A DNA stretch of 12,959 nucleotides from Candidatus Woesearchaeota archaeon (GCA_964573185.1 CAZNIQ010000008.1:1-12959), one strand, 5' to 3'. Numbered from the stretch's first letter, positions 1 to 12,959 are shown. Notes: a model not told the origin generated them from the letters alone. A program made the numbers and translations.

Positions 1-137
1 TTTGGAAGCCAGAAGGTAAAATTAAAGGTATAGGAGAAAAGTACTTAGAAGAAGTAAAAGAAAACGAGGTAGTACATTTTATAAGATATGGATTTCTGAA
101 GAAAGAAAAAGATTACTTTATCTATATGCACAAATAG
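1..137 (+). CDS. gltX: 3' end of a CDS truncated by the window edge; probable archaeal-type glutamyl-tRNA synthetase C-terminus
   Basis: Reading from nt 3 gives WKPEGKIKGIGEKYLEEVKENEVVHFIRYGFLKKEKDYFIYMHK*, with TAG at 135-137. The v-x-F-x-R-x-G-F motif close to the C-terminus is what I remember from GluRS/GlnRS-type class I synthetases. Only 44 aa are visible, so the family call is tentative. Confidence 0.45.
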   Translation, partial: WKPEGKIKGIGEKYLEEVKENEVVHFIRYGFLKKEKDYFIYMHK

Positions 138-293
138 TTATTTTTGTTTTTTCATTAACTCTTTCATAATTTTTTCTAAGCTTCCAAACTGTTCCATCAT
201 TTTTTTAGCTCTGTATATCAAATAAACATAGAATATAATAAATCCTACAAATATTCCTAAGAGGAAACCTATTAAGAAGCTAAGAAGATTCAT
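138..293 (-). CDS. Hypothetical small membrane protein (51 aa, one N-terminal TM helix, basic tail); not in the ORF track
   Basis: Hand translation from ATG (293-291) to TAA (140-138): MNLLSFLIGFLLGIFVGFIIFYVYLIYRAKKMMEQFGSLEKIMKELMKKQK*. It exactly fills the gap between the gltX stop (137) and the L11 stop. It overlaps the L11 3' end by 14 nt, which suggests co-transcription. A 51-codon open frame is unlikely by chance in DNA this AT-rich. Confidence 0.4.
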   Translation of the reverse strand: MNLLSFLIGFLLGIFVGFIIFYVYLIYRAKKMMEQFGSLEKIMKELMKKQK

Positions 294-777
294 ATTTCTT
301 TATTAAATCGTCCCATTTGCCTTCTTCAACCTCCTTTAGTATTTCTTTTGGATCTTTATTTTCAACTTTTATCCCACATGCTCTTGCAGTTCCTAATACA
401 GACTTTACTGCCGCTTTTAAAGAGATAGTATTCATATCTTTTAGTTTCATTTTAGCAATCTTCACAACAGCCTCCATTGAAACGTTTCCGACCCACTCAT
501 GAACAGCTCTATGAGCGCCCAAAGTTATTCCAGCTTCTTTAAATAATAATTGAGAAGTTGGGGGCGTTCCTACTTCAATAGTATATTCTTTTGTTTCAAC
601 ATCTACAATTATCTTAACTGGAACCAATAATCCTTTGAAATCTTTTGTTTTTTGATTTATTTCTTGAACAACCTTTCCGACAGGTAATCTTAATTGAGAT
701 AATCTTGGTCCTAAAGGTGGTGTGGGCTTAGCATTCCCCCCTTCAACCATTACTTCTATAACTTCCTTCTTACCCAT
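280..777 (-). CDS. rpl11: 50S ribosomal protein L11 (uL11)
   Basis: 165 aa. The N-terminal GGNAKPTPPLGPRLSQL region matches the uL11 signature (PPLGP-type motif). Length and the secE-nusG neighbourhood are typical. Confidence 0.95.
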   Translation of the reverse strand: MGKKEVIEVMVEGGNAKPTPPLGPRLSQLRLPVGKVVQEINQKTKDFKGLLVPVKIIVDVETKEYTIEVGTPPTSQLLFKEAGITLGAHRAVHEWVGNVSMEAVVKIAKMKLKDMNTISLKAAVKSVLGTARACGIKVENKDPKEILKEVEEGKWDDLIKKYESS

Positions 778-787
778 TCGACATACC

Positions 788-806
788 TTTATAAAAATTT
801 AATAAA
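788..806. promoter_or_regulatory. Back-to-back TATA-like elements in the 39-bp divergent L11 / secE spacer
   Basis: TTTATAAA (788-795, + strand) is centred 25.5 nt before the secE ATG (817). TTTATTAA (reverse complement of 799-806) is centred 25.5 nt before the L11 ATG (777). Confidence 0.5.
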
Positions 807-816
807 GTTTTTGAGA

Positions 817-990
817 ATGGATGTAAAAGAATTTATAAAAGAAGTTAAAGATCTTTGGAAACTCTTAAGGAAACCTGATAAAGAAGAGATCAAAAGAACC
901 ATTATAGTAACTTTAGTATTTCTGGTAAGTATAGGATTTGTTGGTTGGTTGATACAAGAAATAATAAATTACATTTTAGCTTTATACTAA
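817..990 (+). CDS. secE: Protein translocase subunit SecE / Sec61-gamma (57 aa); not in the ORF track
   Basis: Hand translation: MDVKEFIKEVKDLWKLLRKPDKEEIKRTIIVTLVFLVSIGFVGWLIQEIINYILALY*. It has a charged N-terminus with a K-P-D/T-x-x-E motif followed by a single C-terminal TM helix. It ends 1 nt before the nusG ATG, the universal secE-nusG linkage. Confidence 0.75.
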   Translation: MDVKEFIKEVKDLWKLLRKPDKEEIKRTIIVTLVFLVSIGFVGWLIQEIINYILALY

Positions 991-991
991 A

Positions 992-1507
992 ATGCCGTTC
1001 TTTGTTGTAAGAACTGTTGGAGGAAGAGAAGATTTAGTAGCAGAATTTTTGGCTGAAGAAGCTAAAAGGAGGAAAGCAAAAATATATGCAGTTTTAGTCC
1101 CACCCGGAATAAAAGGTTATATCTTTGTTGAAGCAGATAATATATACGAAGTTCAAAGAGCTGTATATGGAATACCACATGCTAAAGGGGTGTTACCAAA
1201 AGAAGTTCCTTTTGAAGAGATAGAGAAATATCTAGTACCTGAAAAGAAAAAGATCGAAATTCACAGAGGTGATATTGTTGAAATAATTGCTGGCCCATTC
1301 AAAGGATATAAGGGAAGAGTTATACGTGTGGATGAACAGAAAGAAGAAGTTACAGTTGAATTAATGGAATCGATGATACCTATACCAGTAACAGTTAAGA
1401 TAGAAGATGTAAAAGTTGTTAAGAAAGAAGCAGAAGTTGCTAAAGAATTAGAAGAGAAAACTAAGAGGCTAGAGAAAGAGGTTGAGGAAGAATGGCTAAA
1501 GTTCTAA
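992..1507 (+). CDS. nusG: Transcription elongation factor Spt5 / NusG
   Basis: NGN domain (FVVRTVGGRE...KGYIFVEA) plus KOW motif (GDIVEIIAGPFKGYKGRV). Sits directly after secE. Carries a K/E-rich C-terminal tail of about 27 aa beyond the KOW domain. Confidence 0.93.
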   Translation: MPFFVVRTVGGREDLVAEFLAEEAKRRKAKIYAVLVPPGIKGYIFVEADNIYEVQRAVYGIPHAKGVLPKEVPFEEIEKYLVPEKKKIEIHRGDIVEIIAGPFKGYKGRVIRVDEQKEEVTVELMESMIPIPVTVKIEDVKVVKKEAEVAKELEEKTKRLEKEVEEEWLKF

Positions 1508-2553
1508 ATTATTTCAATACCTAACTCCTCTTCCAATTCCTTTTTCTTCTCTGGCGTTAATTTTTCTTCTCCTTTTACTTTTCTAACTATAGGAGGTATT
1601 TTTCTTAACCTAGTTACTATAATAAATACTCTTATTGTATTTCCCATTTCAGGATCTATTGCTGCTCCCCAAATTATATTTGCATCAGGAGCTAACTTTT
1701 CTTTTACCTTTTCCAAAATTCTTCCCAACTCTTCCATTTTTAAGTTCTCCCCACCTGTAATTCTTACTAAAGCAGCACCCGCACCTGAAATATCTAAGTC
1801 TAATAAAGGATTATTCAACGCTCTTTCCACAGCTTCCTCCGCTCTATTCTCTGAATCGGACTCTCCTACTCCAATCATACCATAACCTGCTTGTGACACT
1901 ATTGTTCTAACGTCTGCAAAATCAACATTCACTAATCCTGGTTTTGTCACTAACTCTACCATTTCTTTTATTGCAGAAGCTAAAACTTCATCTGCTACTT
2001 TAAAAGCCTGATTTAAGGGTAAGCTAGGGACTAATTCTAATAACTTATCATTCGGAATTACAACAAATAAATCAACCAAATCTTCAAGTTTCTCCAAACC
2101 ATATCTGGCATTATCCCATATTTTCTTCCCTTCAATTGAAAATGGAATAGTACATACCGCTACGGTTAAAGCACCTGCTTTTTTAGCTAATTCAGCAACA
2201 ACAGGAGCAGAACCAGTACCAGTACCACCTCCTAATCCACAGGTAATAAAAACTAAGTCTGCATCTTGAACAACTTGTTTTAATTCATTTTCAGATTCCC
2301 TTGCAGCTTCCTCACCTTTCTTAGGATCTTTTCCAGCACCAAGACCTCTACAAGTCTCTTTTCCAATGAGTATTTTCTTATGTGCTTTTACGGTAGCAAG
2401 ATGTCTAGCATCTGTATTTATCGCTATAAGTTCAACACCTTCTGGAACGCCCATTTCAAAAAGTCTATTTATAGTATTTGAGCCCGCGCCACCACAACCT
2501 ATAACTTTTATTCTTTTGGCTAATTGTTTTAATATCTCTTCTAGCTCTCCCAT
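1504..2553 (-). CDS. ftsZ: Cell division GTPase FtsZ
   Basis: GCGGAGSNT and the tubulin signature GLGGGTGTGSAPV are present. The track ORF begins at a TTG (2565). The first ATG (MGELEE, 2553) sits 28.5 nt from the TATA-like TTTAAATA (reverse complement of 2578-2585), whereas the TTG is only about 16 nt away. I therefore prefer 2553. Confidence 0.96.
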   Translation of the reverse strand: MGELEEILKQLAKRIKVIGCGGAGSNTINRLFEMGVPEGVELIAINTDARHLATVKAHKKILIGKETCRGLGAGKDPKKGEEAARESENELKQVVQDADLVFITCGLGGGTGTGSAPVVAELAKKAGALTVAVCTIPFSIEGKKIWDNARYGLEKLEDLVDLFVVIPNDKLLELVPSLPLNQAFKVADEVLASAIKEMVELVTKPGLVNVDFADVRTIVSQAGYGMIGVGESDSENRAEEAVERALNNPLLDLDISGAGAALVRITGGENLKMEELGRILEKVKEKLAPDANIIWGAAIDPEMGNTIRVFIIVTRLRKIPPIVRKVKGEEKLTPEKKKELEEELGIEII

Positions 2554-2576
2554 CTTGTTAATCAACGTTATTAAAC

Positions 2577-2590
2577 ATATTTAAATTTAA
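2577..2590. promoter_or_regulatory. Shared, partly palindromic TATA region for divergent ftsZ and FKBP genes
   Basis: ATATTTAAATTTAA contains the palindrome ATTTAAAT (2579-2586). It lies 24.5 nt from the FKBP ATG (2607) and about 28-29 nt from the ftsZ ATG (2553). Confidence 0.45.
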
Positions 2591-2606
2591 TGTTAAGGTT
2601 AAGGAA

Positions 2607-3203
2607 ATGATTAAAGAGGGGGATTTTGTTGAAATAGAGTACGAAGGGATAGTGAAGGAAACTGGAGAAGTTTTCGAAAGAAGTGGAAAACCTGTAATTA
2701 TACCTGTTGGAAAGGGATATTTGCCAAGCTTCTTAGATAAAAAATTAATAAATTTAGAGGAAGGTAAAGAATATGTTTTTGAATTCGAGCCTAAAGAAGC
2801 GTTTGGAGAAAGAGATCCAAATCTAATAAAAATAATTCCGGTGAAGGAATTCTTGAAAAGAGGAATAAATCCGGTACCTGGATTGATTGTAAATGTAAAC
2901 GGGATTTTAGGAACAGTTCTTTCTGTTACATCTGGAAGAGTGATAGTTGATTTTAATCATCCTTTAGCAGGAAAACACATAATTTATAAAATAAAAGTTA
3001 AAAGGAAAGTTACTGATTTGAAAGAGAAAATAGCAGGTCTCTTAGAATATATTTTTAACATTGATATGAAAGATAAGGTTGAGATTAAAGATAAGACATT
3101 AATTTTAAAGATAAAAGATATAGTAAGGAACGTAGAGCCCCTAGAGAGATTGCTTAAGGAGGTAATACCAGAGATAAAAGATTTTAAAATCGAACTACAA
3201 TAA
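2607..3203 (+). CDS. FKBP-type peptidyl-prolyl cis-trans isomerase (SlyD-like, with insert-in-flap and a helical C-terminal extension)
   Basis: VEIEYEG...GEVFE at the N-terminus, EAFGERDP, and the highly conserved DFNHPLAGK motif of SlyD/archaeal FKBPs. Confidence 0.9.
   Translation: MIKEGDFVEIEYEGIVKETGEVFERSGKPVIIPVGKGYLPSFLDKKLINLEEGKEYVFEFEPKEAFGERDPNLIKIIPVKEFLKRGINPVPGLIVNVNGILGTVLSVTSGRVIVDFNHPLAGKHIIYKIKVKRKVTDLKEKIAGLLEYIFNIDMKDKVEIKDKTLILKIKDIVRNVEPLERLLKEVIPEIKDFKIELQ
3182..3189 (+). promoter_or_regulatory. TATA-like box for tRNA-Ile, embedded in the last codons of the FKBP gene
   Basis: TTTTAAAA is centred 26.5 nt upstream of tRNA position +1 (3212). Only 8 nt separate the FKBP stop from the tRNA. 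Confidence 0.5.
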
Positions 3204-3211
3204 TTTTTAAC

Positions 3212-3286
3212 GGGCCCGTAGCTCAGCCTGGTTAGAGCGCCCGGCTGATAACCGGGAGGTCCCGGGTTCAAATCCCGGCGGGCCCA
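3212..3286 (+). tRNA. tRNA-Ile (anticodon GAU), no intron, no encoded CCA
   Basis: Hand-folded cloverleaf. Acceptor GGGCCCG/CGGGCCC, D stem GCTC/GAGC, anticodon stem CCCGG/CCGGG with loop CTGATAA (GAT at 3247-3249). Variable loop AGGTC, T arm CCGGG-TTCAAAT-CCCGG, discriminator A. 52 of 75 nt are G+C. Confidence 0.95.
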
Positions 3287-3490
3287 TTATTCTTCTAACC
3301 AGAAAATATCTTCAACTTTTACTCCAAAGAACTTTGCTATTTTTAATGCAAGTTCTAAAGAGGGACAATATTTTCCATTTTCAATAGCACTTATTGTTTG
3401 TCTGGAAACTCCTAAAGCTTTTGCTAGCTGTTCTTGCGTTAAACCGTATTTCAATCTAAATTCTCTTAATTTATTTTTTACTTTAGCCAC
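3287..3490 (-). CDS. XRE/Cro-C1-type helix-turn-helix transcriptional regulator (67 aa)
   Basis: LTQEQLAKALGVSRQTISAIENGKYCPSLELALKIAKFFG is a textbook HTH_3 sequence of the short y4mF-like type. The start codon is GTG (3490). It overlaps the upstream membrane-protein gene by 13 nt. Its stop codon abuts the tRNA 3' end. Confidence 0.9.
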   Translation of the reverse strand: MAKVKNKLREFRLKYGLTQEQLAKALGVSRQTISAIENGKYCPSLELALKIAKFFGVKVEDIFWLEE

Positions 3491-3867
3491 AGTAAAACCC
3501 TATGAATTACAAAATGCGCTATTAGAAGTATAAAGAAAGCTGTTGAAAATCCTAAATAAAACTCCACACTAATTCTTCCAATATCATTTAAGACCCATAA
3601 AATGAAGAACACAAATAGTAAAACTATAAAGCTATATCTAAAAGCTTCTAAATAGTATTTATATTCTCTCTCATCAATTACATATCCTAATTCTTTCTTC
3701 TTCAAATATTCATATATCTTCATTGAAGTGATAATCAAGATTACAAAATATAATACCCTTAGATTTGTTTCTTTTATTAATAATCCACCTAAAACTGCTA
3801 AAATTCCTGCCATTAATGGGATTATCTTGTAAAGTTCACTTGACACCATGTAAAATACATTTAACAT
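3478..3867 (-). CDS. Hypothetical integral membrane protein (about 4 TM helices) paired with the HTH regulator
   Basis: Hydrophobic segments: IIPLMAGILAVLGGLLI, VLYFVILIITSM, FIVLLFVFFILWVL and FSTAFFILLIAHFVI. An alternative start at Met7 (3849) lies 26.5 nt from the TATA centre and may be the real start. Confidence 0.7.
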   Translation of the reverse strand: MLNVFYMVSSELYKIIPLMAGILAVLGGLLIKETNLRVLYFVILIITSMKIYEYLKKKELGYVIDEREYKYYLEAFRYSFIVLLFVFFILWVLNDIGRISVEFYLGFSTAFFILLIAHFVIHRVLLWLK

Positions 3868-3884
3868 AAAATTTTTAAATTTTT
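3868..3884. promoter_or_regulatory. Bidirectional TATA element between the membrane-protein/HTH operon and vapBC
   Basis: AAAATTTTTAAATTTT. The octamer 3872-3879 is centred exactly 26.5 nt from the Met codons at 3849 (- strand) and 3902 (+ strand). Confidence 0.5.
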
Positions 3885-3886
3885 CT

Positions 3887-4135
3887 ATGTATTACAGTTG
3901 TATGACATCGATAGTAATTTCGGTGAGAATTCCTAAAGAAGTAAAGGAGTACTTAGAAAGGAATAATGTAAAAATTAGTAAAATTGTAAAAAAATTTCTC
4001 ATTTCTTATTATAAAATGTTAAAGAAGAAGGAATTAAGGAATAAAATAATAAATGAAATTAGAAAGTCTTTAGAAAAAGAAGAAGAAGAAAGAAAATTTT
4101 TGAATTTAATAAGAGATGATAGAGATACAAGGTAA
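3887..4135 (+). CDS. vapB: Putative VapB-type antitoxin (ribbon-helix-helix-like)
   Basis: Small protein. It has a beta-strand-like IVISVRIPKEV followed by two short helices, then a charged tail. It overlaps the downstream PIN gene by 20 nt. Met6 (3902) is a plausible true start. Confidence 0.6.
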   Translation: MYYSCMTSIVISVRIPKEVKEYLERNNVKISKIVKKFLISYYKMLKKKELRNKIINEIRKSLEKEEEERKFLNLIRDDRDTR

Positions 4136-4538
4136 GAAACTAGTAATTGATTCTTCTGCAGCTATCAGTTATATTTTGAAAGAAAAAGGATGGAAGGACA
4201 TAGAAAAAGTTTTATTAGAATATGATTTCTTATTTTCTACAAAATTATTAATTAAGGAAAGTTTAAATGCTATTTGGAAAAGGAAATATTTGATAAAAGA
4301 TTTAGAAAATGATAAAGAGGTCATAAGAAGATTGTTTCTCTTAATAAAAATAATAAATTTTTATAAGCAAAGTAAACTTTATAAGAAAGCATATAAAATT
4401 TCTTCTAAATATAATATAACAATTTATGATTCTTTATTTTTAGCTTTAGCTTTGAAAATAAGAGGAGATTTGCTTACGAGAGATAAGAAACAAGCAGAAG
4501 TTGGTAAAAAATTAGGAATAGAAGTTATAGTTATGTAA
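4116..4538 (+). CDS. vapC: PIN-domain ribonuclease toxin VapC
   Basis: The four PIN acidic positions are visible at typical spacing: LVIDSSA, LIKESLNA, IYDSLFLALA and LLTRDKK. Coupled to an upstream small antitoxin-like gene. Confidence 0.8.
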   Translation: MIEIQGKKLVIDSSAAISYILKEKGWKDIEKVLLEYDFLFSTKLLIKESLNAIWKRKYLIKDLENDKEVIRRLFLLIKIINFYKQSKLYKKAYKISSKYNITIYDSLFLALALKIRGDLLTRDKKQAEVGKKLGIEVIVM

Positions 4539-6354
4539 CAACGACCTTTATATTTCTTCCCTCTTTAAGAGCCCTTAGCAATTCTTGTGCTATACTAATT
4601 CTTTTAGATAACCTTATTCTTCCCTTTTTACCAACCGTTGCCGTGAACAATAATCTATCGTCCACATAAATGTTTACAGTTCTTCCCTCCAATTCCTCTG
4701 GAACTCTTATTATTATTACATTCTTCGTTTCCTCTATTTCGAACTCTACTTCTCCAGTATATTCTTCTTCAAAGGTTTTGACAGTGATTTTTACTCCAAA
4801 AGCTCTTTCAAGTGCTTCAATAGTTTTACCTCTTTTTCCTATTAATCTTGGTCTTAGCTCTTCCGGTACCCAAACAATAATTCTATTTGGACCCGCAACC
4901 TCCACTTTTACTTTTCTTGTACCTAAGAACTTCCTAAACTTTTCAACAAGCAATTTTTCCAAGAGAGACAACACAGGTGTTTTGCTAACTTTTACTTCTT
5001 TTACAGGAACAACCATCGTTTCTTCACCAAATACATAGATTTCATATTCCAATTCCCCTGTCTCAAAATCTCTTACTTCTACTACGGGTCTAGCCAAATC
5101 TTCTGCGGTCATACCTGTAGGAACTTTTACTACTAACTTCAATTCATATACTTTTTCAACTCCTCCTTTTCTAATAAATATTATCGTATCTACAACCTGA
5201 GGGATCATACCAACGTCTATTCTTCCTATAAACCTTTGAATAGCTTCTATAGGTTCTGTTGCATGTACTACTCCAATCATTCCTACTCCCGCTAATCTTA
5301 AATCAACATATAATTTGAAATCAGGGGTATCTCTCATTTCATCGAATACTACATAATCCGGTCTTGCCAGTAATAAGATATCATGAATTTCTTGGGAAGT
5401 TGCAAAGTTCTTAGAATACTGTGTTATAATATCTTCTACTTGTAAGTCTCTTGGAGATTCGACAGTCTTAACAATCTTTCCTTTGGAAGCATACCACTCT
5501 GCTAAAGCTTGTGCAAAAGTTGTTTTTCCATGTCCTGGAGCACCAGCAATTAAAATACCTTCTGCTTTTTCTTCTAATCTCTTTAGTAGCTTTTCGCTTA
5601 AATTGTAATCTTCTAACTTTAATTTCTTCAATGGTCTAACAATAGTTATTTCCCAGCCATCTGAAACTGGGGGCTTTACAATTACAATTCTATATTTTCC
5701 TAATTGAACGATAATGCTCCCCGGTCTTTCTATTTCTATAAAGCCATCTGGTCTTATTTTTGCAGCTTCCAAAATCTCTAATGCTAAATTCTCTATTTGC
5801 TTAGCATCTAATTTAACATCAAGAAATTCTAAATACCATTCACCCGGCTTACCCTTTTTTCTCATAATCGGAACGTTTTCTTTAATATGTAAAGAAGCTG
5901 TATTTTCATCAAACCACTGCTCAAAAGTAAGTTTATCCATTAAAGGTGCTTTCTCAATATAATAAACTTTACAGCCATATGCTTCAGCAGCTAAAGCTTG
6001 AACTTTATCAGAAGTTATTAAAACGGCATCTTCCTCTAAAGCAAGATCACGAATCATAGAATCGATTCTACCAGATTTTGCTAGTTTGATTTCTTCTAAA
6101 GTAGGAAGTCTACCAGCAAATCTTATTTTAAATCCTTTTTCTTTGGCTAATTTTTGTAATCTCTTTACCTCTTCTAATCCTATAAAACCCGTTTCTCTTC
6201 CTTTTGCCGCTTGCTGTATTAACTCATCCATTGAAGCGTTATGAATTATTATTTCATTTACTTCGAGTTCTCCAGATTCGATCATTTTAGAAAGTACTCC
6301 ATCTATAAGCACAGACGTATCTGGTACTACTTTATCTATTTTTAACTTTGCCAT
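4531..6354 (-). CDS. Conserved archaeal PIN-domain / PilT-like ATPase / KH-domain protein (COG1855-type)
   Basis: N-terminal PIN (VVPDTSVLIDG ... ITSDKV). Walker A GAPGHGKTT, Walker B VVFDEMRD and a GVVHAT box. C-terminal KH GXXG motif (IGKRGKTIEALERAFGVKI). Confidence 0.85.
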   Translation of the reverse strand: MAKLKIDKVVPDTSVLIDGVLSKMIESGELEVNEIIIHNASMDELIQQAAKGRETGFIGLEEVKRLQKLAKEKGFKIRFAGRLPTLEEIKLAKSGRIDSMIRDLALEEDAVLITSDKVQALAAEAYGCKVYYIEKAPLMDKLTFEQWFDENTASLHIKENVPIMRKKGKPGEWYLEFLDVKLDAKQIENLALEILEAAKIRPDGFIEIERPGSIIVQLGKYRIVIVKPPVSDGWEITIVRPLKKLKLEDYNLSEKLLKRLEEKAEGILIAGAPGHGKTTFAQALAEWYASKGKIVKTVESPRDLQVEDIITQYSKNFATSQEIHDILLLARPDYVVFDEMRDTPDFKLYVDLRLAGVGMIGVVHATEPIEAIQRFIGRIDVGMIPQVVDTIIFIRKGGVEKVYELKLVVKVPTGMTAEDLARPVVEVRDFETGELEYEIYVFGEETMVVPVKEVKVSKTPVLSLLEKLLVEKFRKFLGTRKVKVEVAGPNRIIVWVPEELRPRLIGKRGKTIEALERAFGVKITVKTFEEEYTGEVEFEIEETKNVIIIRVPEELEGRTVNIYVDDRLLFTATVGKKGRIRLSKRISIAQELLRALKEGRNIKVVVT

Positions 6355-6359
6355 AAGAA

Positions 6360-6977
6360 CTACTTCTCTTTTGGTTTTAAAACAACTTCTACCACCTTTC
6401 CCTTAGGTTCTACTTCCTCAAAAATCTGGCCTTGGAATTTGTAAATTTTAATCCCTTTCCATGTCCAGCAGTCCGGTGGTAATCCCGCTTTCAAACAAGT
6501 ATAAGATAAAAACTCCACAACATCCCATCCTTCTTCTACCGGAACCTGGGGTAATAATAAACCGGAATATGGGCCATATTGAATTATTAATCCATCTTTA
6601 CCGATTTTAATTTTTTCTAACAATTCTGAAGGATCCTTATATTTTATTTCCTGAGGTGGTGTTAAAACTGTTACTTCAAATATCACTTTATTTATTTCAT
6701 CTTTTCTTAAAGGAGGGAATCTCGGATCTTCAAAAGCAGCAGCTTTAGCAGAATCTATTAAAGCTTTCCATAAAGGAAAAATAGGATAAGGATAACCGAT
6801 ACAGCCTCTTAATTCTTTCTCAGGAAAAGTTTTTATAGTAACAAAAACGCCTCTTTTTTCAGAATATTTCTTCTTAAATTCTTCCGAAGGCTGAAATTCT
6901 TTTCCTTCTAAAGCTAATTCAACAACCTTTCTTGCTGTTTTTACTAATTCTTCCCCTTCTTTAAGACTTAAATTCAT
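6360..6977 (-). CDS. AMMECR1-domain protein
   Basis: The LRGCIGYP signature and DPRFPP motif are typical of AMMECR1. Length is 205 aa. Its start overlaps the rpoL 3' end by 17 nt. Confidence 0.9.
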   Translation of the reverse strand: MNLSLKEGEELVKTARKVVELALEGKEFQPSEEFKKKYSEKRGVFVTIKTFPEKELRGCIGYPYPIFPLWKALIDSAKAAAFEDPRFPPLRKDEINKVIFEVTVLTPPQEIKYKDPSELLEKIKIGKDGLIIQYGPYSGLLLPQVPVEEGWDVVEFLSYTCLKAGLPPDCWTWKGIKIYKFQGQIFEEVEPKGKVVEVVLKPKEK

Positions 6978-7251
6978 TTAATGCTTTAAGATACTCTTGC
7001 TTAAATTCTTGTAATTTCTGGATTATTCTTTTAACAGCATTTATTAAAGCTTCTCTTGGTTTCTCTTTCCCATTCGTTTCTAATATAAATTCCGCTTCAT
7101 TTTTTAATGGATGTTGAATTCTATAAGCTGCTAGAACTACATTAGGATCATTCCATAACTCTTTTCTCAAGATATTCAAAAAAGTATGTGTTTCCCCTTT
7201 GAAAACAATCTTCATTTTTGTATTGGTTTCCTCTATTATTTGGAATTGCAT
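6961..7251 (-). CDS. rpoL: DNA-directed RNA polymerase subunit L (Rpo11)
   Basis: 96 aa. GETHTFLNILRKEL...DPNV..AAYRIQHPL matches the RpoL/Rpb11 dimerisation-domain pattern (G-E-x-H-T-x-x-N-x-L-R). Confidence 0.88.
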   Translation of the reverse strand: MQFQIIEETNTKMKIVFKGETHTFLNILRKELWNDPNVVLAAYRIQHPLKNEAEFILETNGKEKPREALINAVKRIIQKLQEFKQEYLKALNEFKS

Positions 7252-7273
7252 AACATGGTTGATTAAAGTTCCG

Positions 7274-7290
7274 TTTTTAAGTTTTTATAA
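7274..7290. promoter_or_regulatory. Adjacent divergent TATA-like elements for rpoL and P1
   Basis: CTTAAAAA (reverse complement of 7274-7281) is centred 26.5 nt from the rpoL ATG (7251). TTTTATAA (7283-7290) is centred 26.5 nt from the P1 ATG (7313). Confidence 0.5.
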
Positions 7291-7312
7291 GAATCCCGAT
7301 TTATACTTATTC

Positions 7313-7864
7313 ATGAAATTTTCTGATCCAAGAAAAATAATCATTGAAGAAATAAAGGAAGAGGAGAAAGTTGAGCATGATATAGAATATTTACTTAATA
7401 ATTTTACACATTTAATAAATTTCCTTAACAGGGAATTCTTAACATTTGGAAAATTAATGAAAATTGAAGAAGAGAAAAGAACCTTAGCGAGAGAATTACA
7501 AGAAATTGAAAGAAGGTTAAGAATGTTTCTAACACAAATACACGAGTTTGAAGAATTTCTTAGAAAAGGAAATTGGAATATATCTTTAAGAGAATTGGGA
7601 ATTTTAAATAGTTTTGAAAGCTTTTTAAAGAGATTCGTGAATGTTGCTATTGAAAGAGTAGAAAAATTATGTGAAGAAGAAAAAAGAATTTTAGATGAAA
7701 TGAAACAAGAAATTAATAAGGAGCTACAGGAATTGAAAACAATAATAAAAGCTGAGAGAGGTGAATTACATAATTTATCGGAATTAGAAAAGCTGATTGA
7801 AAAAGAAAAATCCATTTATACGCAATTACCTGGAACGTTACTTAAAGGAAATCTTTTTAGGTAA
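7313..7864 (+). CDS. Hypothetical all-helical coiled-coil protein P1 (183 aa)
   Basis: K/E/L-rich heptad-like sequence (LARELQEIERRLRMFLTQIHEFEEFL; EEEKRILDEMKQEINKELQELKTIIKAE). I recognise no family. The track start at 7199 would overlap rpoL divergently by 53 nt and reads like an antisense shadow. ATG 7313 has correct TATA spacing. Confidence 0.7.
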   Translation: MKFSDPRKIIIEEIKEEEKVEHDIEYLLNNFTHLINFLNREFLTFGKLMKIEEEKRTLARELQEIERRLRMFLTQIHEFEEFLRKGNWNISLRELGILNSFESFLKRFVNVAIERVEKLCEEEKRILDEMKQEINKELQELKTIIKAERGELHNLSELEKLIEKEKSIYTQLPGTLLKGNLFR

Positions 7865-7885
7865 GAACATATATAAAATGAAAAC

Positions 7886-8383
7886 ATGAGAGGGTTATTT
7901 GGGTTCTTTAGAGGGAAGAAAAAGAAGCAAATAGATATTTCTGGGTTTGTAAGAAAAGAACCAAGTGGTTTGGGATACTCAAGTATTTCCGTACAGATCG
8001 GTGCAAGAGGTTTTCCATATATTGGAAAGATCGCTATGGTCTGGGCACAAAAACTGAAAAAAGATTTATCAGAAGCACAAGAGATACTTAAGAAAGAAGA
8101 AACAGAAGTTGCGGGCATCTCAAAAATTATCGAAGAGTTGTGGAAACTTGAACAAGAAAAATTGAAACTGTATAGATATTTAATGCTTATGGCAAAGAAA
8201 CCTGCAAATCTTCCAAAAGCAATAAAAGTTATTGAAACTTTAGATAAATTGATTCAAAAACAAATAGTTCTAATAAAACATCTCGCAAAGGAAGAGGGTT
8301 CTGAAAAACACACATTGGAAAAAGAGCGTGCCTTGCTAAAACAATTAAAAGGATTATTAGAAAAATATATACAACAAATGTGA
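7886..8383 (+). CDS. Hypothetical protein P2 (165 aa): amphipathic basic N-terminus, G/S/P-rich linker, C-terminal coiled coil
   Basis: Begins MRGLFGFFRGKKKKQ, followed by a linker of about 35 aa (EPSGLGYSSISVQIGARGFPYIGK), then about 110 aa of heptad-like helix. It lies 21 nt after P1 with no correctly spaced promoter, so it is probably co-transcribed. Confidence 0.7.
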   Translation: MRGLFGFFRGKKKKQIDISGFVRKEPSGLGYSSISVQIGARGFPYIGKIAMVWAQKLKKDLSEAQEILKKEETEVAGISKIIEELWKLEQEKLKLYRYLMLMAKKPANLPKAIKVIETLDKLIQKQIVLIKHLAKEEGSEKHTLEKERALLKQLKGLLEKYIQQM

Positions 8384-8403
8384 AATAATAAAAGACGAAG
8401 CCC

Positions 8404-8928
8404 TCACAAATCATTCACCAATTCTTCTAACGTTTTTCTAAATTCGTCCAAAATCCCATGTAAATCTAAGTTTAGAATTCTCTCTAATTCACTCATACTT
8501 TCGAAATCTACTTTTCCTTCTTTTATAAGTTCTATGATTGTTTTCCCCATTTTATCCCTACATTCCTTATATGAATTCCTTTGAGTACACATATTTAGCA
8601 ATCCCCATACCAATAAATCATGAAATTTTAGCTTTTTATCAGAAGATAGAGATTTTAATACAAACTTCCAGCCAGCTATATAATTTAAATCATCGTCAGC
8701 CGTAAAATCAAAACCAGTATCATAATTTTCCAAGGATTTTGCTGTTCTTACTATTCCTTGTGGTAATTCAATAATAAAATAATATATGTCAAAACCAAAA
8801 GATATTTTTCCTAAAACATTGTTATAACCGAATTCTCTTGCAAATCTATTAATATATTCATGGAATACTTTTGCATAAGATCGCATTAATTGTAGAACTT
8901 CTGAGATAAACTTCTCATACGCGCTCAT
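8404..8928 (-). CDS. Hypothetical globular protein P3 (174 aa)
   Basis: Aromatic-rich, non-repetitive sequence (FGFDIYYFIIELPQG, DFTADDDLNYIAGWKF) unlike its coiled-coil neighbours. It has its own TATA (reverse complement of 8951-8958) centred 26.5 nt upstream of the ATG. No family recognised. Confidence 0.7.
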   Translation of the reverse strand: MSAYEKFISEVLQLMRSYAKVFHEYINRFAREFGYNNVLGKISFGFDIYYFIIELPQGIVRTAKSLENYDTGFDFTADDDLNYIAGWKFVLKSLSSDKKLKFHDLLVWGLLNMCTQRNSYKECRDKMGKTIIELIKEGKVDFESMSELERILNLDLHGILDEFRKTLEELVNDL

Positions 8929-8949
8929 GAATAATGTTACTACTTCTAC

Positions 8950-8960
8950 TTTATAAAAAT
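8950..8960 (-). promoter_or_regulatory. TATA-like box for P3
   Basis: On the - strand ATTTTTATAAA; the octamer is centred 26.5 nt from the ATG at 8928. Confidence 0.45.
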
Positions 8961-8994
8961 TATTATCTATTTATACATAGTAGATTTTTAAAAC

Positions 8995-9003
8995 AATATT
9001 AAG
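8995..9003 (+). promoter_or_regulatory. TATA-like box for the P4-P5 operon
   Basis: TTTTTAAAA; the octamer 8996-9003 is centred 26.5 nt from the ATG at 9026. Confidence 0.45.
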
Positions 9004-9025
9004 AGAGAAGAAAAATATATTCTTT

Positions 9026-9250
9026 ATGCCCATTGATGAAAAACTTTCTAAGGAAAAAGAGGAGGATGTTCTAAAAGAAGAAATCGAGGTATTGGAAAGG
9101 GAAATAAAGTTAGCGATACTTGAATTGGAAGATCTAAAAGAAGATTTAAAAGAGTTAGGACTAAAGGAAAAATTAGAAGAGGATATAGAAGAAGTGGAGA
9201 AGTTCCTAAACAATGCTTATGAAATCGCGAAATTATTAAAACAATGGTAA
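9026..9250 (+). CDS. Hypothetical small, highly acidic coiled-coil protein P4 (74 aa)
   Basis: EEDVLKEEIEVLEREIKLAILELEDLKEDLKELGLKEKLEEDIEEVEKFL. The stop overlaps the P5 start (CAATGGTAA, 7-nt overlap), implying translational coupling. Confidence 0.65.
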   Translation: MPIDEKLSKEKEEDVLKEEIEVLEREIKLAILELEDLKEDLKELGLKEKLEEDIEEVEKFLNNAYEIAKLLKQW

Positions 9251-9948
9251 AGCTATCGGGTTTAGTAAAAAGGAGAACAAACAGATTATTAAAAACATTA
9301 AAGCAGTTTGGTAAAGAATTAGGAATTGAAGAAAAAGATTTGGAAAAACTTGAAATCTCGCTAAAGCAAGAAATAGAAAATTTAGAAAGACTAGAAAACG
9401 AAATTGGTAGAGAAACAGGAAAACTACTGAAAATATTATTGGAATATGAAGTTACAAAAAAAGAGCTTGCTACAAAAATAGTAAATGTTATACATATCTT
9501 GGCAGGAGTGCAAGGAAAAATACATAACCTAAGAGTAAGAGTTGCAAATGTTGGAACAAGAATAAAAACATTAATCAAAAAAGGAATTGGAAAATCTGCT
9601 TTGTTAGCACTAAAAGCCGCTGGATGGGCTGGATCTCCTACTGCGAGGCAGACGGCAGAAGCAGCAGAAGAAGAAATAGAGGAAACAATAATGTTAGAGA
9701 GACAATCGGCTTCTGCGATAAGATCTTTGAATAGAATTCTTTATGAAGTCAACGCAAGTATTGAAGGTACGCTTCAAAGATTAAAGGAGATAAATAATAA
9801 AGAAAAAAAGCTCTTAGATCAAATAAAGAATAATTTAAATAAAGAAGAAGAAATAATAAATAAAGCCCTACATATAGAAGCGACATTAAAAAATTTAGAA
9901 AGCCAATTAAGTCAAGTTTTGTCAGAACTACAAAGAACTAGTTCTTAA
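9244..9948 (+). CDS. Hypothetical protein P5 (234 aa): basic N-terminal helix and two coiled-coil arms flanking a central basic/hydrophobic region that ends in an Ala/Gly-rich segment
   Basis: N-terminus MVKLSGLVKRRTNRLLKTLKQF. Heptad-like arms at about residues 25-77 and 142-230. The central segment is IHILAGVQGKIHNLRVRVANVGTRIKTLIKKGIGKSALLALKAAGWAGSPTARQTAEAAEEE. No family recognised. Confidence 0.75.
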   Translation: MVKLSGLVKRRTNRLLKTLKQFGKELGIEEKDLEKLEISLKQEIENLERLENEIGRETGKLLKILLEYEVTKKELATKIVNVIHILAGVQGKIHNLRVRVANVGTRIKTLIKKGIGKSALLALKAAGWAGSPTARQTAEAAEEEIEETIMLERQSASAIRSLNRILYEVNASIEGTLQRLKEINNKEKKLLDQIKNNLNKEEEIINKALHIEATLKNLESQLSQVLSELQRTSS

Positions 9949-11602
9949 AGCTCAATATCTTTACCTCCCCAGTCCTTAAATTTTTTATAACAACTTTTGC
10001 CGGATCGGGAATATGTCCCATTTCTTTTTGGAATATTGTTAAGCCTTGCCAACATGAAGCATTGATTAAATCAATACCTTTATAGTTTCCATAAGCCGTA
10101 CGATGAATGTGACCAGTAACAAAGATATCCGGGATGGGATCAATTAACAGAGGATCTTCTGATGGGTATGGGATGTATGCTGTGGAACCATGAGTTGGAG
10201 CTAAATGTCTTAGTTGTAACATAAATTTCATTATCAAAACGGCATTTTCATATCCCCCATTTTGCCTTATCATTTCAACATTAGATACTAACCAATCCAT
10301 AGAATAACCATGATATATCAAAGTTAAAAATCCTTGGAAATCTTTAGTATAATGTATTCTAACGTAAGAAGGATTGGATAAGAAATAAACATTTTTCATT
10401 TGATACGCATTTGGTAAATATTCTTTTGGTATTGGAGGTTGTGGCTCTGCTAGTCTAACAACAACATCGTGATTTCCGGGTATTACTATTATTTTTATAT
10501 GTTCTGGGACTTCCTCTAAATACTTTTCAAATACTTCATATTGTTTATATATATCATCTATTTCCAATTCTTCCCTTTGATTTGGATATACACCAATACC
10601 ATCAACTATATCCCCAGGAATTACCCAGTAAGCCACTTTTCTTGCCATCTCCCTTTGTTTCTCATTTCCATATTCTCCTTTCAACCATTTAATAAATTTT
10701 TCAAATTCCTTTTTTAAGAAAAGCTTATTTCCGAACTGGAAATCGCCAGTAAATATAACATAAATATCTTCTTTTATCGGAGCAGTCTTCTTTTCCTTTT
10801 GAGGAACGTCTGGTAAGAATATTTGTTCAGGAAATACGGTTTCGTTTTTAATCGTACCGAAAACCCCTATAACAGAATCCTCCGGAATACTTTTAGCTAA
10901 AGAATATAATTCGCTATCTTTTTTAACGTAAACTGTAATATAACCAGTAGGATCTTCTAAAATTAGTTTAACATTACCGTTAGGCAAAATTCTCTTTTCA
11001 TAAACTAATCCTGCTATAGAAACTTCTTCATTTTCTTTTTTCTTAGCTAGATCTATACTAACCACATTTAACATTTCTTTATGCAATTTCAAAGCTTTCA
11101 TCAATTTCTTTAATCTTACTTTGAAATATTGTGCCCAAGCAGGAACAGATATCTCCTCAGGAGGATTTACATAGTTTTTCTCAATTTTGATATTTGTTTC
11201 AATTTCTTCTCCTATATATCTTTTCTTTGGCTCTATAATTTCTACTTCTTTTGGTTTCTCCTTTATAATAACTTTCTGCTCAATTTTCACTGTTTTCTCT
11301 ATTTTTACTTCTTCAGTTTCTTTTACCTCTTTAAAGAATTGAGTAAGTGTTATAGATTTTCCATTTGTTTTTACTTTAATTTTCCTTTCTTTTCTTAAAG
11401 TTTCACCCGTTTTTTTATTCTTTACTTTAACTAAAACTTCTTTTGTCAAAATTCTTGGTATGTTATTTCCATATACTAATCTCAAATTCTTTAGGAATTC
11501 TTCTATATCAAAATCTCCATTTATCTCTTCAAGAAAATCTGCTGTAACTATAAATCCTCTTCTCGCAAATTCTTCAATTATCCTTTTTATCTTTGGATTC
11601 AT
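9938..11602 (-). CDS. dp1: DNA polymerase II (PolD) small subunit DP1, with a calcineurin-like phosphoesterase domain
   Basis: Phosphoesterase motifs PGDIVDG, PGNHD, YHGYS and TGHIHRT are present. Also present are the OB-fold region, the conserved N-terminal domain and a K/E-rich linker. Motif I reads GDFQFG rather than the usual D-x-H. The ATG overlaps the cdc6 stop (ATGA). Confidence 0.93.
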   Translation of the reverse strand: MNPKIKRIIEEFARRGFIVTADFLEEINGDFDIEEFLKNLRLVYGNNIPRILTKEVLVKVKNKKTGETLRKERKIKVKTNGKSITLTQFFKEVKETEEVKIEKTVKIEQKVIIKEKPKEVEIIEPKKRYIGEEIETNIKIEKNYVNPPEEISVPAWAQYFKVRLKKLMKALKLHKEMLNVVSIDLAKKKENEEVSIAGLVYEKRILPNGNVKLILEDPTGYITVYVKKDSELYSLAKSIPEDSVIGVFGTIKNETVFPEQIFLPDVPQKEKKTAPIKEDIYVIFTGDFQFGNKLFLKKEFEKFIKWLKGEYGNEKQREMARKVAYWVIPGDIVDGIGVYPNQREELEIDDIYKQYEVFEKYLEEVPEHIKIIVIPGNHDVVVRLAEPQPPIPKEYLPNAYQMKNVYFLSNPSYVRIHYTKDFQGFLTLIYHGYSMDWLVSNVEMIRQNGGYENAVLIMKFMLQLRHLAPTHGSTAYIPYPSEDPLLIDPIPDIFVTGHIHRTAYGNYKGIDLINASCWQGLTIFQKEMGHIPDPAKVVIKNLRTGEVKILSFKN

Positions 11603-12825
11603 AGGAACTCCTCTTTTAGCAAATTCACTATCTTTTCATATACTTTGTCTGAAAAATTAATTGTGATTTCTCTTGTTCTACCGTATCTTCCTCTAGAAAT
11701 CACTTTTGCGTTTATAATACCAAGCATGTCTAACTCTGCTATAATATCTGAAACTCTTCTTTGGGTTAGAGGTGGCAACCCTATTTCCTTGCAAACCTTT
11801 GTATATTCTTCATAAACTTTTCCAGTATATGTCTTTTCGGAAGGATCCTTTACTAATCTTAAAATTGCAAACAATACTAATTGAGCTTGTTTTGGTAAAG
11901 ATCTTATCAATTCTGTTAAAGTATCTGTTTCTAACTTTTCTAAAGCTTTATCTACATGCTCCAATGTTATTTTTTCAGCACCCTCTCTTTCTGCAATCTC
12001 ACCAGCTAGTCTTAACAACTCTAAAGCTTTTCTAGCATCCCCATGTTCCCTTGCAGCAATTGCAGCTATCTTTTCAATAACTCCTTCCTCTATAACCCCT
12101 TCTCTAAAAGCCAACTTTGCTCTTTGATATAAAATATCTTTTAGTTGTTGAGCGTTATAAGGAGGAAATAAAATTTCCTCTGCATCCAATGAAGACTTTA
12201 TTCTAGGGTCTATATCATCTAAGAACGTCAAAGAGTTGGAAATCCCAACAAAGGATACCTGCGCTTTTTGCAATTCAGAATTTATTCTTGTAAGATTATA
12301 TAAAACTTCATCACCAGCCTTCTTAACCAAATGATCTATTTCATCTAAAATAATAATTACAACTTGCTCTTTTTTATCTAATAGCTCGAAGAACTTTCTA
12401 TATAGAATATCTAAAGGTAGACCTGTTGAAGGAACCTTGCCACCTAATTCATGTATTAGATTTGCAATAACTCTATATTCCGTATCAGAAACTTTTTTCA
12501 TCTTGCAATTAACATAGAGGATTTTAACAGGGACGTTATATTTTTGAGCGGCTCTTTCTAAGTGTATAGAAACGTATTTTGCAGTTAAAGTTTTACCAGT
12601 ACCTGTCTTTCCATACAAAAACACATTTGAAGGCTTTTCCAGTCTTAAAGCAGGAGCAAGAATAGCTGTCAATTGCTTTATTTGCTCTTCCCTATGTAAA
12701 ATTGTCTCAGGAATATAAGAATCTGTTAAAACCTTTCTGTTTACAAACAGAGATTTCTTTTTGACATATTGATCAAAGAAAGTTTCAAGGAAATCTGTTA
12801 TCTTTACTTGACTCATGGGATACAC
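11599..12825 (-). CDS. cdc6: Orc1/Cdc6 replication initiator (AAA+ with C-terminal winged helix)
   Basis: Walker A LYGKTGTGKT, Walker B IIILDEIDHL, sensor-1 FVGISNS and a winged-helix C-terminus (ISRGRYGRTREI). Met4 (12816) is an alternative start. Confidence 0.96.
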   Translation of the reverse strand: MYPMSQVKITDFLETFFDQYVKKKSLFVNRKVLTDSYIPETILHREEQIKQLTAILAPALRLEKPSNVFLYGKTGTGKTLTAKYVSIHLERAAQKYNVPVKILYVNCKMKKVSDTEYRVIANLIHELGGKVPSTGLPLDILYRKFFELLDKKEQVVIIILDEIDHLVKKAGDEVLYNLTRINSELQKAQVSFVGISNSLTFLDDIDPRIKSSLDAEEILFPPYNAQQLKDILYQRAKLAFREGVIEEGVIEKIAAIAAREHGDARKALELLRLAGEIAEREGAEKITLEHVDKALEKLETDTLTELIRSLPKQAQLVLFAILRLVKDPSEKTYTGKVYEEYTKVCKEIGLPPLTQRRVSDIIAELDMLGIINAKVISRGRYGRTREITINFSDKVYEKIVNLLKEEFL

Positions 12826-12842
12826 ATGAAATAAACCTTAAC

Positions 12843-12852
12843 TTTTATAAAA
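12843..12852 (-). promoter_or_regulatory. Palindromic TATA-like box (TTTTATAAAA) upstream of cdc6
   Basis: The - strand octamer TTTTATAA (reverse complement of 12845-12852) is centred 23.5 nt from ATG 12825 and 32.5 nt from Met4 (12816). Confidence 0.5.
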
Positions 12853-12862
12853 CTTTTTATTG

Positions 12863-12878
12863 CCCCCCCCCCCCCCCC
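12863..12878. repeat. C16 homopolymer (G16 on the cdc6-coding strand)
   Basis: Counted directly: 8 C at 12863-12870 plus 8 C at 12871-12878. It sits between the cdc6 TATA box and an ORB-like dyad, in DNA that is otherwise strongly AT-rich. Confidence 0.9.
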
Positions 12879-12891
12879 TTCCTGTTGTGAA
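12863..12891 (-). other. Candidate origin recognition box (ORB-like dyad plus G-string)
   Basis: The - strand reads TTCACAACAGGAA followed directly by G16. Characterised archaeal ORB elements combine a short TTCC..GGAA-type dyad with a downstream G-string. Only one copy is visible before the window ends. Confidence 0.35.
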
Positions 12892-12959
12892 TAATAATAA
12901 CAATTATTTAATTCAATTAAAAATATATTAGAGGCATATAATAATTAATAATTATTATT
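12892..12959. other. Extremely AT-rich stretch, candidate duplex-unwinding element of oriC
   Basis: TAATAATAACAATTATTTAATTCAATTAAAAATATATTAGAGGCATATAATAATTAATAATTATTATT has only a handful of G/C. It lies directly upstream of cdc6, as at Pyrococcus oriC. No ORF is present. Confidence 0.35.

Follow-up and report, generated by a model that had tools for sequence, protein, structure and literature searches.

Five orphan genes between rpoL and DP1 in a DPANN-type archaeal contig probably occupy a lineage-restricted variable gap

Genes and features of the interval

Contig CAZNIQ010000008.1 of a Candidatus Woesearchaeota archaeon (GCA_964573185.1; positions 1-12959, 12,959 nucleotides (nt), hereafter the window) carries five consecutive genes, P1 to P5, in the interval between rpoL and the gene for the PolD small subunit, DP1 (Table 1). 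An earlier reading of the DNA, the original prediction, treated these genes as an island encoding a single undescribed system of mostly coiled-coil proteins. What kind of locus is this, and do the five genes belong together? The other genes in the window encode L11, SecE, Spt5/NusG, FtsZ, FKBP, a helix-turn-helix (HTH)/DUF2178 pair, a PIN pair, a PIN-ATPase-KH protein, AMMECR1, RpoL, DP1 and Cdc6, and this gene set, from L11 to RpoL, DP1 and Cdc6, identifies the window as archaeal. The nearest genomes in a DP1 search are metagenome-assembled genomes of Woesearchaeota/Nanoarchaeota, with identities of 36-46% for DP1 and 52-58% for Cdc6. The housekeeping proteins of the window have a hyperthermophile-like composition (IVYWREL 0.475, charged-minus-polar 0.18, at 31% GC). 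A 13-kb metagenomic contig (ENA ERZ27262635) differs from the window by 18 mismatches and one 3-nt gap over 12.8 kb, and the Logan assembly of SRR7968109 also yields the window contig. The window is a metagenomic, hyperthermophile-like DPANN-type archaeal contig.

Table 1. Genes, promoter elements and insertion/deletion segment of the interval, in window coordinates
Feature	Position	Strand	Description
P1	7313-7864	+	183 amino acids (aa); acidic (net charge -4, isoelectric point (pI) 5.8), helical; from gene calls
P2	7886-8383	+	165 aa; strongly basic (net +14, pI 9.8); from gene calls
P3	8404-8928	-	174 aa; acidic; monocistronic on opposite strand; from gene calls
P4	9026-9250	+	74 aa; very acidic (net -12.5, pI 4.4), helical; from gene calls
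P5	9244-9948	+	234 aa; basic (net +8, pI 9.5); from gene calls
TATA-like box TTTTTATAA of P1	7282-7290	+	23-31 nt upstream of P1 ATG
TATA-like box TTTTTATAA of P3	8951-8959	-	23-31 nt upstream of P3 ATG; same motif and spacing as P1
Insertion/deletion segment with P3, P4 and P5	8384-9938		~1.55 kb; relative to sister genome

All five open reading frames (ORFs) lie where they were originally placed, and independent gene calls on two other assemblies of the contig return the same five products. With a stop-codon probability of ~0.078 per codon at 31% GC, open frames of 165-234 codons have chance p values of 1.5e-6 down to 6e-9; the p value for the 74-codon frame of P4 is only ~0.0025. In each of the five ORFs, GC content at the first codon position exceeds that at the second and third (GC1 > GC2, GC3) and the sense strand is purine-rich, as in the housekeeping genes. 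GC and AT skew flip exactly at the minus-strand gene P3. Base composition is native, in agreement with the original prediction: GC3 is 0.19-0.31, compared with 0.21-0.24 in housekeeping genes, and the codon adaptation index is 0.61-0.72, compared with 0.68-0.75. Two 176-aa antisense ORFs are also present, at window 7285-7815 (-) opposite P1 and 9048-9578 (-) opposite P4/P5. These are Ser/Phe/Leu-rich shadows of K/E-rich coding sequence and not genes.

The five genes fall into three transcription units (P1-P2, P3 and P4-P5), and the first gene of each had been credited with a TATA-like element. This holds for P1 and P3, which have the identical TTTTTATAA; the element of P4 is a looser TTTTTAAAA, ~33 nt upstream. 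The motif occurs five times in the window against 2.4 expected, a count that is not significant by itself. The 61 nt between the divergent genes rpoL and P1 contain a near-palindrome that includes the P1 box, and this intergenic region is alignable with that of a sister genome described below. P4 and P5 are probably translationally coupled, because the stop codon of P4 overlaps the start codon of P5 (ATGGTAA, 7 nt). The 3' ends of P5 and DP1 overlap as well, by 11 nt. Each two-gene operon pairs an acidic protein with a basic one (P1, -4, with P2, +14; P4, -12.5, with P5, +8), and it is the basic partners, P2 and P5, that carry N-terminal basic motifs.

Helical character, family searches and predicted folds

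P1, P2, P4 and P5 were originally described as dominated by heptad-like helical sequence. A strong 3.5-residue periodicity along the whole length is indeed present in P2 and P5 (z 9.7 and 23.3, respectively); P1 and P4 have local a/d patterning only, and P3 is without global 3.5-residue periodicity. The a/d patterning covers 0.87 of residues in P1 and 0.92 in P4, compared with 0.33 and 0.31 in shuffled sequences, and 0-0.64 in the housekeeping proteins of the window on the same measure. Given the hyperthermophile-like composition, a K/E/I/L-rich background is normal in this organism. K/E/L/I content is inflated in all proteins of the window, and coiled-coil calls made by eye need tempering.

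As the original prediction held, none of the five proteins belongs to a known family: the curated cutoffs of Pfam and NCBIfam were unreached, and PHROGs, PADLOC and PDB sequences gave no convincing match. Matches at lenient E values in Pfam, NCBIfam, PHROGs and PADLOC are coiled-coil noise (SMC, Rad50, LmuB, tape measure), with HMMER filters removing most matches above E ~0.1. PDB sequence searches with P2, P3, P5 and a P1 profile returned designed helical bundles, noise or nothing. Among 5.8 billion clustered proteins, P2, P3 and P5 each match themselves alone, and an exhaustive phmmer scan of 1.84 billion representatives with P5 likewise returned only P5. For P1, searches covered family libraries, the PDB, phages, plasmids, viral contigs and one metagenome scan with weak patterns. 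Metagenome scans with AMMECR1 and P1-alignment queries gave no match, the P1 patterns being poor and of low complexity. BLAST searches of phages and plasmids gave no match, plasmids having been searched with P1 only, and viral-contig scans with P1, P2 and P5 gave no match. A viral-contig match of P3 is due to chance; it grew from the seeded 8-mer DEFRKTLE, and the phage ORF that contains this 8-mer is unrelated. No paper was found on the accession numbers, and a topical literature search gave no relevant results.

The three examples of characterised families named in advance, namely prefoldin, A-type ATPase stalk subunits and SMC-like proteins, gave no confident profile match. The best prefoldin match is TIGR00293 on P1 (E 2.3, 8.4 bits against a cutoff of 53.9); prefoldin subunits have two coiled-coil helices around beta-hairpins, but strands are absent from the P5 model and limited in the P2 model to a low-confidence pair, of 3 residues each, within the N-terminal region. 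Matches to A/V-type ATPase stalk subunits are far below the cutoffs (V_ATPase_I on P1, E 0.27; V-type subunit I on P5, E 9), and the window has no ATPase genes that would provide an operon context for them. SMC and Rad50 profiles of NCBIfam match at E 0.03-0.13, again far below the cutoffs and through the coiled coil alone, and there is no P-loop in any of the five proteins. Transmembrane segments and Cys/His clusters are also absent from all five, as first noted; on the Kyte-Doolittle scale no 19-residue window exceeds 1.19, and Cys residues number 0-2 per protein. No paralogy was found among the five.

AlphaFold2 models of P2 and P5 have no significant match to a known fold in Foldseek. The P2 model has a predicted local distance difference test score (pLDDT) of 66.7 and a predicted template modelling score (pTM) of 0.61. 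It begins with the motif MRGLFGFFRGKKKK, followed by a Gly/Pro-rich linker predicted to be disordered and then a predicted four-helix bundle. The N-terminal 41 residues are disordered in the model, and the predicted helices, of 25-28 residues each, span 43-70, 78-102, 106-133 and 139-164. Its Foldseek matches in the PDB are generic or de novo four-helix bundles (best E 0.49, none at E <= 0.001). The N-terminus of P2 had been described as amphipathic, but its hydrophobic moment of 0.44 is reached by 24% of shuffled sequences, and a more apt description is a hydrophobic patch with a polybasic run after it. The motif resembles the N-terminal hydrophobic/basic motifs of CHMP and Snf7 proteins, a likeness that we take as a lead and not as a test.

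The P5 model (pLDDT 70.9, pTM 0.44) has a basic amphipathic helix at 4-26, a long helix at 30-112, a Gly/Ala/Pro-rich hinge and a second long helix at 132-233. The helix at 4-26 is significantly amphipathic, with a hydrophobic moment of 0.58 that is reached by 0.3% of shuffled sequences. From the helix layout and the kind of Foldseek matches, the two long helices are predicted to form an antiparallel hairpin. Those matches are SMC arms, EnvC and chemoreceptor hairpins in the PDB (best E 0.26, for an SMC arm; none at E <= 0.001) and generic viral coiled coils in BFVD (best E about 0.026).

Comparison with a sister genome and more distant relatives

A sister genome was found through the 90%-identity cluster of RpoL, whose second member belongs to NCBI assembly GCA_054017035.1. 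The corresponding 49-kb contig (L009; also represented as L010) has the gene order Cdc6-DP1-(121 aa)-(187 aa)-RpoL-AMMECR1-PIN-ATPase-PIN pair. In a collection of 15 billion proteins, matches of at least 90% identity to any flanking gene come from two lineages only. The flanking proteins of the window and the sister genome are 85-95% identical, with a nonsynonymous substitution rate (dN) of 0.02-0.08 and a ratio to the synonymous rate (dN/dS) of 0.03-0.12. P1 and the 187-aa sister gene are ~67% identical, with a conserved start, a dN of 0.20 and a dN/dS of 0.147. Judged by these rates, P1 is a real gene under purifying selection, yet one that evolves several-fold faster than its neighbors (~3-10-fold at nonsynonymous sites).

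Conservation of P2 is far more uneven. P2 and its sister orthologue are 28% identical overall, with 10 of the first 14 residues kept (MRGLFGLFKRKKK), giving a conserved N-terminal motif of MRGLFGxFxxKKK. The frame of the orthologue (L009 8832-9370) stops after 47 codons in a T7 run, and changing T7 to T8 restores a 178-aa ORF. The frameshift is identical in both sister assemblies, which are possibly from the same sample, and may reflect slippage, a pseudogene or an error of assembly. P3, P4 and P5 are absent from the sister genome, where the segment that carries them in the window corresponds to ~18 nt between the P2 orthologue and DP1. The island itself has three within-population single-nucleotide polymorphisms, too few for a selection test on P3-P5.

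In six more distant relatives, DP2 directly follows DP1 and there is no detectable P1-P5 in the loci compared, which comprise 7-18 kb around DP1 without the rpoL neighborhoods. The order Cdc6-DP1-DP2 is found in all six of these Woese/Nanoarchaeota loci (L003-L008). By contrast, DP1 in the window (9938-11602, -) is not followed by DP2, and the same is true of the sister genome. In this lineage the PolD operon is broken up, and the point of separation coincides exactly with the variable gap. Two weak likenesses to the relatives were set aside. An apparent match of P2 in L005 is to the charged tail of another protein, which we take from its sequence to be of ScpB type. P5 matches a 126-aa orphan in the sister genome (L009 19058-19438, -) with 32% identity over 65 aa and 27 bits. 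The orphan resembles the N-terminal arm of P5 and is the sole hint of a P5 relative, and the match was judged probably compositional.

Several other features of the window lie outside the interval. Synteny with the sister genome ends at window ~3868 (L009 ~13386). Beyond this point, the window has DUF2178-HTH-tRNA-Ile-FKBP-FtsZ-NusG-SecE-L11, and the sister genome has a TYW2/TRM5-like methyltransferase and four orphan genes, with L11 on another contig. The tRNA-Ile (GAU) gene at window 3212-3286 (+) is the sole RNA family or tRNA found in the window. An 82-aa protein (3887-4135, +) and a PIN-domain protein (4116-4538, +) are encoded by genes with a 20-nt overlap and form a VapBC-like toxin-antitoxin pair, which is 86% identical in the sister genome, with a dN/dS of 0.09-0.12. 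Close to the other end of the window, a 16-nt C homopolymer (12862-12877; G16 on the Cdc6 strand) is found upstream of Cdc6 at a distance of ~40 nt and is followed by a very AT-rich stretch up to the window end at 12959, a candidate origin-proximal region.

One system or a variable gap

In the original view, the five genes would work jointly, either in an assembly of the filament, scaffold or membrane-remodelling kind or in a cdc6/oriC-linked system of chromosome organisation. Points in keeping with this are the tight packing of the genes, the helical, heptad-rich character of four of their products, the basic motifs at the N-termini of P2 and P5, and the position of the island beside DP1-Cdc6. 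However, the reading fails because the sister genome, which has the same rpoL...DP1-Cdc6 frame, lacks P3-P5, and P2 is frameshifted there. Of the five genes, P1 alone is clearly kept. The original prediction had named lack of conservation of the cluster in relatives as evidence against a shared system, and this is largely what L009, the only sister genome, reveals; the more distant relatives have DP1-DP2 without an island at that position. The five proteins have neither paralogy nor a common domain to unite them, P3 has a promoter of its own and runs in the opposite direction, and adjacency to cdc6 is the sole link to replication. It is therefore very unlikely that the five genes form one system.

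On balance, the interval is probably a lineage-restricted, fast-evolving variable gap between the conserved rpoL-AMMECR1 and DP1-Cdc6 blocks, occupied by acid-base helical operons with accessory roles. The gap holds two unrelated parts: the shared P1-P2 operon, and the 1.55-kb P3/P4-P5 segment, which is found only in this lineage. The five proteins have no recognisable family by sequence, or by predicted fold in the case of P2 and P5, and are helical and soluble. How might such genes work? Each operon would make an acid-base pair of helical proteins, and the two partners may combine in a heteromeric structure, a helical bundle or a coiled coil. The N-terminal motif of the basic partner could then anchor the complex on an anionic surface, which would be the membrane or nucleic acid. 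Such complexes would have accessory and dispensable roles, as expected for taxonomically restricted genes in an episymbiont-type archaeon. Some points weigh against this interpretation. Conservation is judged from a single pair, with one sister genome, and the indel may be an insertion or a deletion. The searches of large protein databases covered only P2, P3 and P5, and the models of P2 and P5, each made from a single sequence, reach moderate confidence (pLDDT 67-71). Charge, operon structure and one conserved motif are what the proposed heteromers and their tethering are inferred from. Lastly, the sister frameshift could mean that P2 is decaying rather than functional.

The second-ranked explanation, which we consider unlikely, is that P3/P4-P5 is a mobile-element remnant or a toxin-antitoxin-like conflict cassette, gained here or lost in the sister genome. 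In its toxin-antitoxin-like form, the small acidic upstream protein P4 would neutralise the basic downstream P5. The two genes resemble a type II toxin-antitoxin pair in size, in their opposite charges and in overlap; they are variably present between the sister genomes; P3 and P5 have no homologue in large-database searches; and there is a genuine PIN-type pair within the window, at a distance of 3 kb. Nevertheless, neither protein has a recognisable toxin or antitoxin domain. P5 is pure coiled coil and lacks any enzymatic fold or known toxin fold, a DNA-binding antitoxin domain is not found in P4 at Pfam and NCBIfam cutoffs, and PADLOC offers nothing for P4 and, as the best match for P5, the coiled coil of LmuB (E 0.002, 14 bits). 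Hallmarks of mobility are also missing. There is no integrase or transposase in the window, the only tRNA is 4 kb away, no direct or inverted repeats of note flank the segment, and its composition and codon usage are native. PHROGs and PADLOC have no match below E 0.002 (at most ~15 bits), and there is no real match in viral contigs (P1, P2, P3 and P5), phage records, BFVD or, for P1 only, plasmids. It is still less probable that P2-P5 are decaying or non-functional ORFs and that P1 alone is a working gene. The frameshift and 28% identity of P2 in the sister genome fit such decay, as does the fact that P3-P5 are dispensable and have no homologues; the 176-aa shadow ORFs indicate that long ORFs arise easily opposite K/E-rich sequence. 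Decay is disfavored, though, because of the length of the ORFs (frames of 165-234 codons being very unlikely by chance), the coding-type positional GC and purine loading, the canonical TATA element of P3 with spacing as for P1, and the heptad regularity of P5 (z 23), which is unexpected for junk. The overlap of the P4 stop and P5 start codons also argues against it, and the sister frameshift, being in a T7 homopolymer, may be an assembly error.

Known protein assemblies offer partial likenesses. P2 and/or P5 might be membrane-remodelling proteins of the ESCRT-III/PspA/Vipp1 superfamily that have diverged beyond sequence recognition. A possible likeness to that superfamily lies in the helical hairpin-type architecture, which comes after an amphipathic helix 0 in P5 or a hydrophobic-basic motif at the N-terminus of P2; MRGLFGFFRGKKKK is the best-conserved part of P2, and the predicted layout of P5 resembles helix 0 plus a long hairpin. 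Yet the families listed for P2 and P5 to E 10 include neither Snf7 (PF03357) nor PspA_IM30 (PF04012), Snf7 is not listed for P3 or P4 or among the 25 of 27 families shown for P1, and no ESCRT-III, PspA or Vipp1 structure is among the 50 Foldseek PDB matches listed for each model. The lengths and order of the helices do not fit either: P2 has four equal helices of 25-28 aa in place of a long alpha1-alpha2 hairpin, and P5 ends after its second long helix, without alpha4/alpha5. Moreover, the ESCRT-III partner genes Vps4/CdvC and CdvA are not nearby, and FtsZ is in the same window. Membership of this superfamily is a very improbable explanation. A further likeness, to the antiparallel coiled-coil arms of SMC/Rad50, comes from the best, non-significant, Foldseek and profile matches of P5 (SMC, Rad50 and LmuB arms). 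Unlike those proteins, P5 lacks an ATPase head, Walker motifs and a hinge domain, and it would be an arm alone, of 234 aa. The closest parallel to the variable gap is with taxonomically restricted (orphan) genes in variable gaps of small archaeal/DPANN genomes, which have the same narrow-lineage distribution, encode short, helical, charged proteins, evolve fast relative to their neighbors, differ in presence between sisters and have native composition. Unlike the usual variable-gap orphans, the genes described here include two operons that pair acidic and basic helical proteins, and one N-terminal motif is selectively conserved. This acid-base pairing and selective conservation hint at function rather than noise.

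What does the locus mean for the biology of these archaea? The result mainly removes a candidate "undescribed system": the apparent five-gene island is read as a variable gap of taxonomically restricted genes, of the sort common in small episymbiont-type archaeal genomes, and it has no bearing on any long-standing open question. Within the gap, P1 is a real orphan that appears from its substitution pattern to be under purifying selection, and P2 keeps a membrane-motif-like N-terminus while the remainder diverges. A bolder proposal, and an improbable one, is that P1-P2 and P4-P5 represent a new two-component, membrane- or nucleoid-tethered coiled-coil scaffold in a hyperthermophile-like DPANN lineage, with the P2 motif as anchor. 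Such a scaffold would have evolved independently, as an analogue of assemblies of the ESCRT-III/PspA type or of nucleoid-associated ones. If the acid-base pairs are true functional complexes, they would illustrate how helical proteins newly arise in reduced genomes and are kept there.

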